Below, one piece after another: positions 6,001-12,000 of a stretch of 64,000 nucleotides of DNA (its first letter is position 1; each line of letters opens with the position of its first letter). The position numbers are program-made. Where the stretch lies: assembly GCF_048403405.1 (NCBI RefSeq), contig NZ_CP183129.1; one strand, given 5' to 3'. This DNA comes from Escherichia coli. GTDB lineage: Bacteria; Pseudomonadota; Gammaproteobacteria; Enterobacterales; Enterobacteriaceae.

Positions 6001-9000
6001 ACGGTATTCTGACCAAAGAACAGGTGCTGGCGTCGCTGGAGAATATGGCGAAAGTGGTTGATCAGCAAAACGCTGGCGATCCGGCTTATCGTCCGATGGC
6101 GGGGAATTTCGCTAACTCGTGTGCTTTTAAAGCTGCCAGCGATTTAATCTTCCTCGGCGTGAAACAGCCAAACGGCTATACCGAACCGTTATTACACGCC
6201 TGGCGTTTACGCGAAAAAGAAAGTCATTAATAGCGTCAAAAAAGCCCCGGCAAGTTTTATTGTCGGGGCTATGATAGTAACTGCGGTAGTACATTTATCC
6301 CGGAAATAACCGGAGCGATTATCAGGGGTTAACAATATTAAATACCCGTAGCGCATTACTAGCGGGCCTAAAACAACAATATGGACATCTTAACGATACT
6401 CTGCGCCTGCGTGTGCGGAACAGAAACCCTTACCCGATATACTTGTTATGCCAGAGGTAGCAATTGCGTTAGCGGCGTACTGTTGCTGTAAAGTATAACG
6501 CCTATATTTTACAGTTCAGTCCTCTTTTGCTTATTACAACCTTAAGTATATCAAGCATATAAAGATAATAAGAGACTGAACAATATGGTTACCTGGACCC
6601 AAATGTATATGCCGATGGGAGGACTGGGGCTATCCGCTCTGGTCGCCCTGATCCCGATAATATTCTTCTTCGTTGCACTCGCGGTATTACGTCTGAAAGG
6701 ACATGTCGCTGGAGCAATAACCCTTATATTATCTATCCTGATTGCAATATTCGCCTTTAAAATGCCGATTGATATGGCATTTGCTGCTGCGGGCTATGGC
6801 TTTATTTATGGATTATGGCCTATTGCGTGGATTATTGTTGCGGCGGTGTTCCTCTATAAATTAACCGTTGCCAGCGGTCAGTTCGATATTATCCGCAGCT
6901 CGGTTATCTCCATCACTGACGATCAGCGTTTGCAGGTGTTACTGATTGGTTTCTCCTTTGGCGCGCTGCTGGAAGGGGCGGCTGGCTTTGGTGCGCCGGT
7001 GGCGATTACCGGTGCGCTGCTGGTGGGCCTGGGCTTCAAACCGTTATACGCGGCGGGGCTGTGTCTGATTGCCAATACTGCGCCGGTGGCGTTTGGTGCG
7101 TTGGGCGTGCCGATTCTGGTCGCCGGTCAGGTAACGGGAATCGATCCGTTCCACATTGGCGCAATGGCGGGACGTCAGTTACCGTTCCTGTCGGTTCTTG
7201 TGCCGTTCTGGCTGGTAGCAATGATGGACGGCTGGAAAGGGGTGAAAGAGACGTGGCCAGCGGCGCTGGTTGCTGGGGGAAGCTTCGCTGTCACGCAGTT
7301 CTTTACCTCTAACTATATTGGTCCGGAACTGCCGGATATTACTTCGGCGCTGGTGAGTATCGTCTCACTCGCTTTATTCCTTAAAGTCTGGCGGCCGAAA
7401 AATACCGAAACGGCAATCAGCATGGGACAATCCGCAGGTGCGATGGTGGTGAATAAACCATCTTCTGGCGGTCCCGTGCCTTCAGAATATAGTCTGGGGC
7501 AAATCATTCGTGCGTGGTCACCGTTTTTAATCTTAACGGTGCTGGTCACCATCTGGACCATGAAGCCGTTTAAAGCGTTATTTGCTCCGGGCGGCGCGTT
7601 TTATTCACTGGTGATTAATTTCCAGATCCCTCATTTGCATCAACAAGTGTTGAAAGCGGCACCCATTGTCGCCCAACCAACGCCAATGGATGCGGTGTTT
7701 AAATTCGACCCTCTCTCGGCTGGCGGCACCGCTATTTTTATTGCGGCGATTATCTCTATCTTCATCCTCGGCGTGGGCATCAAGAAAGGGATTGGCGTCT
7801 TTGCCGAAACGCTAATTAGTCTGAAGTGGCCGATATTGTCGATTGGCATGGTGCTGGCGTTCGCCTTCGTCACCAACTATTCCGGCATGTCCACCACGCT
7901 GGCGCTGGTACTGGCAGGTACAGGCGTAATGTTCCCGTTTTTCTCACCGTTTCTCGGCTGGCTGGGCGTATTCCTTACCGGCTCGGACACCTCCTCTAAC
8001 GCCCTGTTTGGTTCACTGCAATCGACCACGGCGCAGCAAATCAACGTCTCTGACACCCTGCTGGTGGCAGCAAATACCAGCGGCGGCGTAACTGGCAAGA
8101 TGATCTCCCCGCAATCTATCGCCGTGGCCTGCGCCGCGACGGGCATGGTGGGCCGAGAATCTGAACTGTTCCGCTACACCGTGAAGCACAGTCTGATTTT
8201 TGCCAGCGTTATCGGCATTATCACGCTGTTGCAGGCGTATGTGTTTACCGGGATGTTAGTTTCGTAAGTCAATAAAGCCGGATGATCGTTAATATCATCC
8301 GGCTTCGTTGTGCACAGAAAACCCCCAGCTAGGCTGTAATGCCGATCAGTTAAGGATCAGTTGACCGATCCAGTGGCTGTGTAAGAATCCGGAAACGCTC
8401 ACTTGTTTCCGGATTTTTTTATGCACATTGGACAGGCTCTTGATCTGGTATCCCGTTACGATTCTCTGCGTAACCCACTGACTTCTCTGGGGGATTACCT
8501 CGACCCCGAACTCATCTCTCGTTGCCTTGCCGAATCAGGTACTGTAACGCTACGCAAGCGCCGTCTTCCCCTCGAAATGATGGTCTGGTGTATTGTTGGC
8601 ATGGCGCTTGAGCGTAAAGAACCTCTTCACCAGATTGTGAATCGCCTGGACATCATGCTGCCGGGCAATCGCCCCTTCGTTGCCCCCAGTGCCGTTATTC
8701 AGGCCCGCCAGCGCCTGGGAAGTGAGGCTGTCCGCCGCGTGTTCACGAAAACAGCGCAGCTCTGGCATAACGCCACGCCGCATCCGCACTGGTGCGGCCT
8801 GACCCTGCTGGCCATCGATGGTGTGTTCTGGCGCACACCGGATACACCAGAGAACGATGCAGCCTTCCCCCGCCAGACACATGCCGGGAACCCGGCGCTC
8901 TACCCGCAGGTCAAAATGGTCTGCCAGATGGAACTGACCAGCCATCTGCTGACGGCTGCAGCCTTCGGCACGATGAAGAACAGCGAAAATGAGCTTGCTG

Positions 9001-12000
9001 AGCAACTTATAGAACAAACCGGCGATAACACTCTGACGTTAATGGATAAAGGTTATTACTCACTGGGACTGTTAAATGCCTGGAGCCTGGCGGGAGAACA
9101 CCGCCACTGGATGATACCTCTCAGAAAGGGAGCGCAATATGAAGAGATCAGAAAACTGGGTAAAGGCGATCATCTGGTGAAGCTGAAAACCAGCCCGCAG
9201 GCACGAAAAAAGTGGCCGGGACTGGGAAATGAAGTGACAGCCCGCCTGCTGACCGTGACGCGCAAAGGAAAAGTCTGCCATCTGCTGACGTCGATGACGG
9301 ACGCCATGCGCTTCCCCGGAGGAGAAATGGCGGAACTGTACAGTCATCGCTGGGAAATCGAACTGGGATACAGGGAGATAAAACAGACGATGCAACTGAG
9401 CAGGCTGACGCTGAGAAGTAAAAAACCGGAGCTTGTGGAGCAAGAGCTGTGGGGTGTCTTACTGGCTTATAATCTGGTGAGATATCAGATGATTAAAATG
9501 GCGGAACATCTGAAAGGTTACTGGCCGAATCAACTGAGTTTCTCAGAATCATGCGGAATGGTGATGAGAATGCTGATGACATTGCAGGGCGCTTCACCGG
9601 GACGTATACCGGAGCTGATGCGCGATCTTGCAAGTATGGGACAACTTGTGAAATTACCGACAAGAAGGGAAAGGGCCTTCCCGAGAGTGGTAAAGGAGAG
9701 GCCTGGAAATACCCCACAGCCCCGAAAAAGAGCCAGTCAGTTGCTTAACTGACTGGCATTACAGCTAGGCTGGGGGTTCCGGAAAGCTTTCAGCTTTGAG
9801 CCAGTTATTAAAACCCCTTTTGATTTGTTAAAACACCTTGCGGTCTGGCAACTGCAAGTGTCAAACAAGAAATCAAAAGGGGGTCCCAATGGGGAACGAA
9901 AAGAGCTTAGCGCACACCCGATGGAACGCGCGTGGTACAGGGAATGGACGCCGGGCTTTATCAAAAACTGAAACCGTTGGTCTGTGCGCTGCCGATGGCC
10001 CGCCAGCAAATCAACATCAATACATTAGATGTCACGCAAAGTGTGATTCTTGAGGCGCTGTTTGACCCGTGGTTAAGCCCTGTTCAGGCGCGGGCGTTAT
10101 TACAACAACGTCCGGCGAAGGGCTGGGAAGATGTCGATCAGTTTCTTGCACAGCCGCTACTTGCAGACGTCGATGAGCGTACTAAAAAACAGCTAAAAAC
10201 CGTCCTGAGCGTGGACAGCAATTACTTCTGGCTGCGTTCAGATATCACCGTGAATGAGATTGAACTGACGATGAATTCGTTAATTGTCCGCATGGGCCCA
10301 CAACACTTTTCTGTTCTCTGGCATCAGACAGGAGAAAGTGAGTGAGTTTCATGCTTGAGATTTTTTTCCCGCTTTGCGCCGCTGATCCCATCCGTTGGCA
10401 GCGCCATACACCCGACGTGGAGCACGGTATCTGGCCTGACGTTGCTGATGAATGTCTCCAGCAATGGCTGCAAACTGATGCGATTCGACTCTACATTCCC
10501 GGCGAATGGATCAGCGTCTGGCAGGTTGAACTGCCTGATGTGCCCCGCAAGCAGATACCGACGATTCTGCCCGCCTTGCTGGAAGAAGAGCTGAACCAGG
10601 ATATCGATGAACTGCATTTTGCCCCGTTGAAAATCGACCAGCAACTGGCAACCGTAGCTGTGATTCACCAGCAGCATATGCGCAACATTGCGCAGTGGTT
10701 GCAGGCAAACGGCATCACCCGCGCTACCGTCGCGCCGGACTGGATGTCCATTCCTTGTGGGTTTATGGCTGGCGATGCGCAACGGGTTATCTGCCGCATC
10801 GATGAATGCCGGGGATGGAGCGCCGGGCGGGCGCTGGCTCCGGTCATGTTCCGCGCACAGCTCAATGAGCAGAATTTACCGATTTCACTAACCGTGGTCG
10901 GCATTGCACCGGAAGAACTGTCTGCATGGGCTGGTGCGGACGCGAACGCCTGACCGTTACGGCTCTGCCCGCCATTACCACTTATGGCGAACCGGAAGGG
11001 AACCTGCTAACAGGGCCGTGGCAGCCTCGTGTCAGCTACCGAAAACAGTGGGCGCGCTGGCGGGTGATGATTCTGCCGATATTGCTGATTCTGGTTGCGC
11101 TGGTAGTGGAACGGGGCGTGACGTTATGGAGCGTCAGCGAACAGGTGGCGCAAAGCCGCACCCAGGCGGAGAAACAGTTCTTAACGCTATTCCTGGAGCA
11201 GAAGCGGATTGTGAATTTACGCTCTCAGATGACGATGGCGCTGAAAAAATATCGCCCACAGGCCGACGATACCTGGCTGCTCGCAGAATTGTCAGTGATC
11301 GCCAGTACCCTGAAATCAGCGTCACTTTCCGACATCGAAATGCGTGGTTTCACCTTTGATCAAAAACGCCAGACGCTTCACCTTCAGCTACGGGCTGCGA
11401 ACTTTGCCAGCTTCGACAAACTGCGTAGCGCACTGGCGGCAGATTATGTTGTGCAACAGGACGCGTTACAGAAAGAGGGTGATGCGGTTTCCGGCGGCGT
11501 AACGTTGCGGAGGAAATAACATGTTACGCGATAAATTTATTCACTATTTTCAGCAATGGCGTGAACGCCAGTTAAGCCGTGGCGAACACTGGCTGACACA
11601 ACACCTGGCGGGGCGTTCTCCGCGTGAAAAAGGCATGTTACTGGCAGCGGTAGTGTTCCTGTTTAGCGCCGGATATTACGTCCTCATCTGGCAGCCGTTG
11701 AGCGAACGGATAGAACAACAGGAGACGATGTTGCAGCAGCTGGTGGCGATGAACGCGCGACTGAAGAGCGCCGCGCCGAATATTATTGCGGCGCGAAAAT
11801 CCGGCACGACAACGCCAGCACAGGTATCGCGGGTCATCAGCGACAGCGCTTCCGCGCACTCTGTGGTCATCAAACGGATTGCCGAGCGTGGGGAGAATAT
11901 TCAGGTCTGGATAGAACCTGTGGTGTTTAATGACCTGCTGAACTGGTTAAAGGCGCTGGATGAAAAGTACGCGCTGCGGGTGGCACAAATTGATGTCAGT

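Follow-up and report, generated by a model that had tools for sequence, protein, structure and literature searches.

An IS4 copy nested in an IS200C remnant at the left border of a type II secretion gene deletion in Escherichia coli

The chromosomal region between the glycolate permease gene glcA and the kps capsule locus of Escherichia coli raises the question of whether the IS4 copy residing there is responsible for the loss of most of the beta type II secretion (T2SS-beta) cluster from this position. The locus was analyzed within a stretch of 64,000 nucleotides of contig NZ_CP183129.1, referred to as the window. A preliminary description had placed an IS4 with an 11-bp target duplication between glcA and a 3' piece of gspK, with sslE/yghJ, pppA, yghG and gspC to gspJ missing, and had attributed the element to simple transposition and the deletion to a separate event. 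All of these points were borne out by the alignment against genomes featuring an intact T2SS-beta cluster, in which the missing genes, and also the 5' part of gspK, lie between the same two points. The earlier reading is incomplete rather than wrong: IS4 is nested in the remnant of another insertion sequence, IS200C, and not in plain intergenic DNA. The features of the locus are as follows.

6585-8267, + strand: glcA (glycolate permease), intact, 560 aa (ORF list; RefSeq annotation of the identical CFT073 DNA)
8270-8310, + strand: hairpin of glcA resembling a Rho-independent terminator, arms 8270-8286 and 8294-8310 (inverted repeat)
8310-8336, + strand: IS200C left end, part 1 (IS200C nt 1-27, start ±2 bp; alignment to uninterrupted IS200C at the same glcA site)
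8326-8336 (left copy) and 9762-9772 (right copy), + strand: target duplication CAGCTAGGCTG, exact, 11 bp
8337-9761, + strand: IS4, 1425 bp (alignment to the K-12 IS4, 1426 bp)
8421-9752, + strand: IS4 transposase ORF (Pfam Nterm_IS4, 3e-33, and DDE_Tnp_1, 5e-32)
9762-9927, + strand: IS200C left end, part 2 (IS200C nt 17-182; 100% identical to IS200C up to 9927, where the match stops)
9927/9928, no strand: deletion junction joining IS200C nt 182 to gspK, blunt, zero shared bases
9928-10345, + strand: gspK 3' fragment, 418 bp, C-terminal ~137 aa (Pfam T2SSK, E = 6e-20)
10342-11519, + strand: gspL pseudogene (alignment to gspL of the reference locus L005; RefSeq 'frameshifted')
11521-12057, + strand: gspM/yghD, intact ORF, 178 aa (Pfam T2SSM, E = 1e-45)

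The element at 8337-9761 shares 99.6% nucleotide identity with the K-12 IS4 (insG), from which it is distinguished by five substitutions and a 1-bp deletion near 9701. It was assigned to the IS4 subgroup of the IS4 family based on its identity and length, its 18-bp imperfect terminal inverted repeats (TAATGCCGATCAGTTAAG and CTTAACTGACTGGCATTA; 8337-8354 versus 9744-9761, matching at 16 of 18 positions), its 11-bp duplication, and the IS4 N-terminal and DDE domains of its transposase. Target duplications of IS4 are known to range from 11 to 13 bp. Compared to the K-12 element, it is 1425 instead of 1426 bp long, its host site is another insertion sequence, and the end of the transposase is altered, the last 15 aa being replaced as a result of the 1-bp deletion; in the identical DNA of CFT073, RefSeq labels the gene as a frameshifted pseudogene. 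The 11-mer CAGCTAGGCTG is present on both sides of IS4 and is a true target duplication because it occurs as a single copy in uninterrupted IS200C copies.

The DNA on either side of IS4 (8310-8336 and 9762-9927) represents the first 182 bp of IS200C, a 710-bp element of the IS200/IS605 family. Positions 1-8336 of the window align to positions 11002-19337 of L004 and L005, the reference loci with an uninterrupted IS200C at glcA, and this alignment includes 16 bp of the IS200C left end (8310-8325); the other 166 bp (9762-9927) are 100% identical to the complete element. Relative to K-12, the IS200C insert corresponds to L005 19311-20020 and is located just 3' of the terminator-like stem of glcA, where the empty sites of K-12 and strain 83972 read ...ATCATCCGGCTTC(A/G)TTTACATT. 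The left-end hairpin is divided between the two parts of the remnant, its 5' arm (AACCCCCAGC) belonging to part 1 and its 3' arm to part 2. Part 1 also carries the left copy of the target duplication, and part 2 the 5'-UTR stem-loop and the tnpA start codon (at 9889) with codons 1-13, which translate to MGNEKSLAHTRWN. IS4 sits in the loop of the left-end hairpin, AACCCCCAGC-TAG-GCTGGGGGTT, for which a folding energy of -11.7 kcal/mol (z = -3.7) was obtained once it was reconstituted.

The imperfect inverted repeat that had been noticed between IS4 and gspK does exist, with arms of 16 nt (9814-9829 and 9867-9882) being 94% complementary; rather than being an isolated feature, however, it is the stem-loop of the IS200 tnpA 5'-UTR (9814-9882), which covers the ribosome-binding site of tnpA and folds as RNA with -36.6 kcal/mol (z = -5.6). 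The Rfam family STnc490 (RF01405) was matched at 9756-9879 over model positions 1-124 of 124, with 120.5 bits (gathering score, 56), although its first hairpin is disrupted, IS4 sequence standing in place of the 5' arm. Left-end hairpin, stem-loop occluding the ribosome-binding site and tnpA start are features shared with IS200C and STnc490. Compared to complete IS200C, a quarter of the element is left, its left-end hairpin is split by IS4, nt 183-710 including the right end are deleted, and tnpA, the intact reference product of which matches Pfam Y1_Tnp, is cut after codon 13. Accordingly reduced in sequence, the IS200C of the window is regarded as a remnant rather than an element and is predicted to be unable to transpose. 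No IS200 remnant is listed at this locus in the RefSeq records of CFT073, ATCC 25922 and NCTC 86, and the annotation of these widely used strains is corrected here, the practical value being small and the biology ordinary.

The right end of the IS200C remnant coincides with the deletion junction. The parental sequences read ...CGATGGAAC/TGTAAAT and ...AGTGAGAT/GCGCGTGG, respectively, and the window reads ...CGATGGAAC/GCGCGTGG; their comparison revealed no microhomology at 9927/9928. Measured against IS200C genomes with an intact cluster, the deletion spans approximately 15.3 kb (L005 19493-34822) and comprises IS200C nt 183-710 as well as ~14.8 kb of the chromosome, namely sslE, pppA, gspS2/yghG, gspC to gspJ and the first 560 bp of gspK. 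IS200C nt 182 and gspK being the endpoints, the IS200C remnant, and not IS4, represents the true left border of the deletion. Neither a second IS200C or IS4 copy able to recombine nor a tRNA gene as a possible island border was found within the 64,000-nt window. On the right-hand side, the gspK fragment aligns to L005 34823-35240 (RefSeq label 'GspK, missing N-terminus'), gspL is split into two ORFs (10342-10953 and 10926-11519) by a 1-bp deletion near 10942, and gspM is the last gene of the cluster and is followed by the kps capsule locus. Only these three genes remain of the T2SS-beta, all others, among them those for the secretin GspD, the ATPase GspE, the platform proteins GspF and GspC, the prepilin peptidase and the substrate SslE, falling in the 15.3-kb gap relative to L004, L005 and L013. 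The frameshift in gspL and the 1-bp deletion in the IS4 transposase suggest that the genes left at the locus are decaying, and carriers of this allele can probably produce neither SslE nor the T2SS-beta machine.

To evaluate the prevalence of this arrangement, 5,426 complete E. coli genomes were considered. The deletion junction was identified in 170 of them, among them CFT073 and ATCC 25922, and the left glcA-IS200C-IS4 junction in 169. The 8200-10400 region is 100% identical to the corresponding DNA of CFT073, ATCC 25922 and others. Eight genomes were found to carry IS200C without interruption at this glcA site; two of these, RM14723 and EC2257, were examined and feature the arrangement glcA-IS200C-sslE-pppA-gspS2-gspC to gspM, the whole cluster being kept.

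Taken together, the history of the locus very probably consisted of three steps. IS200C would have been inserted right after the glcA terminator, upstream of sslE. IS4 would then have entered the left-end hairpin loop of IS200C by cut-and-paste transposition, with staggered cuts placed symmetrically around the axis of the hairpin and an 11-bp duplication. Either before or after the entry of IS4, a single non-homologous deletion of ~15.3 kb would have left the blunt junction 9927/9928. For the deletion, an illegitimate, RecA-independent process is proposed, either end joining or replication slippage in the absence of homology, the blunt junction bearing no positive signature of a mechanism.

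Entry of IS4 and deletion might in principle also have taken place as one complex event, because no intermediate was found among the 5,426 genomes, neither the deletion without IS4 (0 genomes) nor IS4 in the glcA-site IS200C with the cluster intact. Alternatively, the IS200C transposase TnpA, a Y1/HUH single-strand enzyme, could be the source of the deletion, through either an aberrant cleavage or a one-ended excision, given that the left endpoint is located inside IS200C. Elements of the IS200/IS605 family are known to excise from single-stranded DNA at replication forks. TnpA, however, cleaves at the element ends beside the left- and right-end hairpins, whereas the break lies 182 bp away from the left end, within tnpA at its codon 13, and the breakpoints AAC/TGT and GAT/GCG are unlike the IS200C ends (left ..TT/GTGCACAG, right ..TATTTATTT/). 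Hence, an origin of the deletion from TnpA activity is very unlikely.

Only a very slight probability is assigned to IS4 itself as the cause, either through an adjacent deletion arising from intramolecular transposition or through recombination of one IS4 copy with another. It is true that IS4 is the sole complete mobile element at the locus, that it is present in all 170 deletion genomes, and that no genome carries the deletion but lacks IS4. However, after either mechanism an IS4 end would be expected at the junction and the duplication would be lost, whereas the 11-bp duplication is intact at both ends and is followed by contiguous IS200C sequence matching the uninterrupted copies. The junction falls within the truncated tnpA, at a distance of 166 bp from the right end of IS4, and is touched by neither end of the element.

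The loss of secretion genes is already on record for NCTC 86. In the passage of Dunne et al. (2017; PMC5382810) on this strain, yghJGF and pppA are described as lost and gspL-gspM as retained; IS4, the IS200C remnant and the gspK fragment are not mentioned in the passage, which regards the locus as the K-12 state at a more advanced stage. In that scenario, the K-12 deletion would have occurred first, followed by the loss of yghJ, pppA, yghG and yghF. NCTC 86 carries the same junction and an identical right-hand structure as the window, and thus the same allele, and both the K-12 and the window lineage keep distal genes only (gspL' and gspM). The K-12 remnant (yghJ-pppA-yghG-yghF ... yghE-yghD) resides at the same chromosomal locus and likewise leaves the secretion machine non-functional. 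However, the endpoints contradict the proposed sequence of events: in K-12, the genes from gspD to the 5' part of gspL are lost and sslE/yghJ, pppA, yghG and gspC are still present, while the window allele loses sslE through 5' gspK and keeps 3' gspK and 5' gspL. In coordinates, K-12 lacks L005 27451-35450, including the equivalent of window positions 9928-10555, and the window retains L005 34823-35450, representing the last 418 bp of gspK and the 5'-terminal ~214 bp of gspL. Neither allele is derivable from the other, and a third independent deletion, joining sslE' to gspJ', was detected in EcMAD1-type genomes. A later stage of K-12 erosion is therefore extremely improbable; because the endpoints differ and K-12 lacks DNA retained in the window, the two deletions are independent of each other.

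The possibility that the secretion genes were never present at this position in the window lineage and were gained by the intact-cluster strains, which the preliminary description had named as its refutation, is practically excluded: nothing beyond the absence of the genes speaks for it, and gspK and IS200C are both cut mid-gene at a single junction, gspL and gspM are still in their usual place, and other genomes, including strain 83972, possess an intact cluster at this very site.

The gspK'LM remnant is up to 5% divergent from the intact-cluster genomes examined. Within a sample spread across the ranking, the nearest intact gspK-L-M was 98.2% identical, and values of 95.4% and 96.0% were obtained for strain 83972 and the Nissle derivative SYNB1934, respectively. 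Since the remnant diverges from every intact-cluster genome examined, the true parent haplotype lies outside this sample. The deletion allele may stem from a different lineage and have been introduced by recombination, along with the kps capsule locus next to it. Loss of the cluster across the whole ST73 group, including Nissle 1917, was considered and rejected, as the whole cluster is present in 83972 and, at a minimum, gspL, gspM and a full-length gspK in the Nissle 1917 derivative. For the same reason, the 9927/9928 junction represents a convenient lineage marker. Under the three-step history, the loss of SslE and of beta type II secretion in the carriers would be a single, datable and clonally inherited deletion.

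The location of IS4 can be addressed separately from the deletion. IS200 copies at four further loci, i.e., at wzzB-hisI, in an Rpn/IS66 island, at hflC-yjeT and at IS100/hypT, were found to harbor IS4 at exactly this position and flanked by the same CAGCTAGGCTG duplication, so that IS200 hairpins host IS4 in at least four other places. In total, the IS4-IS200 junction was detected in 219 genomes, and IS4 was also observed in the opposite orientation. This recurrence indicates that the presence of IS4 in the window most probably reflects a target preference for the IS200 hairpin, and neither a link to the secretion genes nor the cause of the deletion. It is unlikely that the composites at the other loci moved as units instead of originating from independent insertions, because IS4 splits the hairpin required by the IS200 TnpA and because the host IS200 variants differ (97.8-99.8% identity).

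More tentatively, and with somewhat less than even probability, the IS200 left-end hairpin, a palindrome resembling a terminator, with an A run on one side and a T run on the other, could represent a natural site-specific hot spot for IS4, used at the same nucleotides and in either orientation in many chromosomal and plasmid IS200 copies. One insertion sequence would thereby disable another, since the split hairpin is needed by the IS200 transposase. Within the searchable literature, which does not extend to the older work on IS4 and IS200, no description of IS4 in IS200 hairpins was encountered, and the hot spot may already have been reported in that older work. The nesting of IS4 in IS200 explains the location of IS4 at this locus and provides a defined natural target for studies on IS4 site choice.

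Mayaux et al. reportedly derived in 1984 a pseudo-palindromic IS4 target consensus, AAA-N20-TTT, a string for which no paper was found in the searchable literature. A review of the IS4 family describes a striking insertion specificity in the target arms for some elements of the IS4 subgroup. The IS4 site in K-12 reads AAA-N20-TTT, and the site in the window reads AAA-N20-TTC.

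The IS4 copy that the preliminary description had placed, with an 11-bp target duplication, between glcA and a 3' gspK fragment was found at the coordinates proposed, as were the duplication and the fragment (alignment, repeat search, and Pfam). The interpretation offered there is upheld but was incomplete, as the DNA flanking IS4 had not been recognized as a remnant of IS200C, a 710-bp element of the IS200/IS605 family. The structure is an ordinary case of one IS nested in another, next to a deletion that is inherited clonally; its one mildly new aspect is that IS4 recurs at exactly the same position within IS200 hairpins. 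The region is composed as follows:

4059-6230, + strand: glcB
6585-8267, + strand: glcA
8270-8310: terminator-like hairpin 3' of glcA
8337-9761: IS4, aligned end to end with K-12 IS4
8326-8336 and 9762-9772: 11-bp exact direct repeat CAGCTAGGCTG flanking IS4
9928-10345: gspK fragment (Pfam T2SSK)
between the gspK fragment and gspM: gspL, disrupted by the loss of 1 bp near 10942
11521-12057: gspM/yghD, intact

Compared to K-12 IS4 (1426 bp), the copy has five substitutions and lacks 1 bp near 9701; this deletion shortens it to 1425 bp and replaces the last 15 transposase residues. Despite this deletion, the Nterm_IS4 and DDE_Tnp_1 domains are retained (Pfam); the identical copy in CFT073 is labeled "frameshifted" in RefSeq.

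Alignment to genomes featuring an uninterrupted IS200C downstream of glcA assigned window positions 8310-8336 to IS200C nt 1-27 and 9762-9927 to nt 17-182, the 11-bp overlap of both pieces being the IS4 target duplication. The second piece is 100% identical to the IS200C left end in hundreds of genomes, the match ending exactly at 9927. Uninterrupted IS200C contains this 11-mer only once, so the duplication is genuine. IS4 entered the loop of the left-end hairpin, AACCCCCAGC-TAG-GCTGGGGGTT (folded as DNA: -11.7 kcal/mol, z = -3.7), with the staggered cuts symmetric around the hairpin axis. Furthermore, the Rfam family STnc490, representing the IS200 5'-UTR RNA, aligns along its entire length with 9756-9879 (score, 120.5 bits; gathering score, 56), with mispairs confined to the first hairpin's 5' arm, which is now IS4 sequence; this match confirms the IS200C remnant. 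The 20-bp imperfect inverted repeat reported previously is present and corresponds to the second STnc490 stem (9814-9829 / 9867-9882; -36.6 kcal/mol, z = -5.6). In IS200, this stem blocks the ribosome-binding site of tnpA. The start codon of this gene lies at 9889, with 13 codons left (MGNEKSLAHTRWN). Downstream of the intact ribosome-binding-site stem-loop, this truncated start is joined out of frame to gspK, forming a 54-codon chimeric ORF (9889-10053; MGNEKSLAHTRWN-ARGTGNGRRAL...) that is probably without meaning.

Four further loci that were inspected (wzzB-hisI, an Rpn/IS66 island, hflC-yjeT, and beside IS100/hypT) also hold IS4 at exactly this position of an IS200 left-end hairpin, flanked by the CAGCTAGGCTG duplication; their host IS200 variants differ (97.8-99.8% identity). 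The IS4-IS200 junction occurs in this orientation in 219 genomes and with IS4 reversed in at least three records; for scale, the IS4 right end was found at 5,259 places in 2,600 genomes. The IS4 site in K-12 reads AAA-N20-TTT and the IS200 site AAA-N20-TTC, both matching the pseudo-palindromic target consensus reportedly described by Mayaux et al. in 1984. From this recurrence and the site sequence, the presence of IS4 at glcA can be explained by a target preference for the IS200 hairpin. A review of the IS4 family mentions "spectacular apparent insertion specificity" in some IS4-subgroup elements. IS200C, for its part, seems to insert directly downstream of Rho-independent terminators, as all seven inspected IS200 copies (L002 and L003, 1480-1490; L007-L010, approximately 2100-2147; window 8300-8310), located after acrF, rplL, glcA, wzzB, hflC, and others, directly follow a GC-rich hairpin and T run.

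Eight complete genomes have IS200C without interruption at this position after glcA. In the two inspected (RM14723 and EC2257; extracted loci L004 and L005), it is followed by sslE, pppA, gspS2 (yghG), and gspC through gspM. Alignment to these loci defined the deletion endpoints: 15,330 bp are missing when measured against L005 (19493-34822) and 15,291 bp when measured against L004, comprising IS200C nt 183-710 and approximately 14.8 kb of chromosome. Strain 83972, an asymptomatic-bacteriuria isolate lacking IS200C at glcA, has 14,762 bp of chromosome that are absent from the window.

IS4-IS4 recombination and IS4-mediated adjacent deletion are both ruled out, because both IS4 ends are embedded in contiguous IS200C sequence and neither lies at the deletion junction; the deletion is thus a separate event from the IS4 insertion, as previously proposed. 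The junction 9927|9928 is blunt, its parents being ...CGATGGAAC|TGTAAAT and ...AGTGAGAT|GCGCGTGG; no bases are shared between them at the break, and neither breakpoint resembles the IS200C termini. Most likely, illegitimate joining independent of homology would have made the deletion, a mechanism we infer, as the blunt junction bears no positive signature.

Among 5,426 complete E. coli genomes, the whole structure was present in 170, the deletion junction in 170, and the left glcA-IS200C-IS4 junction in 169, while the deletion without IS4 occurred in none. The left junction is no commoner than the deletion junction, so these genomes give no hint of IS4 at the glcA site beside an intact cluster. 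IS200C insertion was clearly the first event; on these data, IS4 insertion and deletion may have followed in either order. The deletion is clonally inherited and exists already in public, annotated genomes, carriers including CFT073, ATCC 25922, NCTC 86, and one O6:K2:H1 strain. Some relatives are without it: 83972 retains the cluster in full, and SYNB1934, a derivative of Nissle 1917, has gspL and gspM together with a full-length gspK.

Loss of these genes was previously recorded in an account of NCTC 86 (PMC5382810). K-12 lacks L005 27451-35450, and with it 628 bp kept in the window, made up of the 3' end of gspK and the 5' end of gspL. Progression from the K-12 state is rejected, as these endpoints differ and the 628 bp are retained. 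EcMAD1-type genomes represent a third independent deletion, joining sslE' to gspJ'; in EcMAD1 (NZ_LR595691.1, extracted locus L014, 7055-7803), a 546-bp sslE 5' fragment and a 204-bp gspJ 3' fragment precede intact gspK-L-M. The differing endpoints show that the cluster was lost on at least three separate occasions, and the K-12 and EcMAD1 deletions together show that the beta type II secretion system has been lost repeatedly.

The gspK'LM remnant is 3-5% divergent from all intact-cluster genomes examined. Compared to CFT073, the window differs at 90 positions in 4205-8153, confined to glcB/glcA, and at only 2 in 8154-14400, placing a recombination boundary at the glcA 3' end, adjoining the IS200C/IS4 structure. 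By both observations, the deletion allele lies in a recombining region beside the kps capsule locus, and it may have been transferred between backgrounds. Strain U1 (NZ_CP041359.1) matches window 4200-10400 at 100%. In L004 (19454-19913) and L005 (19454-19912), IS200C occupies the identical glcA site and is itself 99.4-100% identical, with flanks that differ from the window by 2-4%. This pattern suggests either that it inserted independently at a preferred site or that recombination transferred it.

Directly 3' of gspM, the group-2 capsule (kps) locus occupies window 12100-31000 (CFT073 3,511,000-3,530,000), with kpsM/T-like ABC transporter genes, region 2, and kpsFEDUCS; region 2 includes a CDP-glycerol glycerophosphotransferase, which fits a K2-type capsule. 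Farther along come Ag43, copies of IS66, and a CbtA/YeeU toxin-antitoxin island. An IS110-family element of 1,430 bp (34076-35505), absent from this site in CFT073, encodes on the - strand a 367-aa transposase with the Pfam domains DEDD_Tnp_IS110 and Transposase_20.
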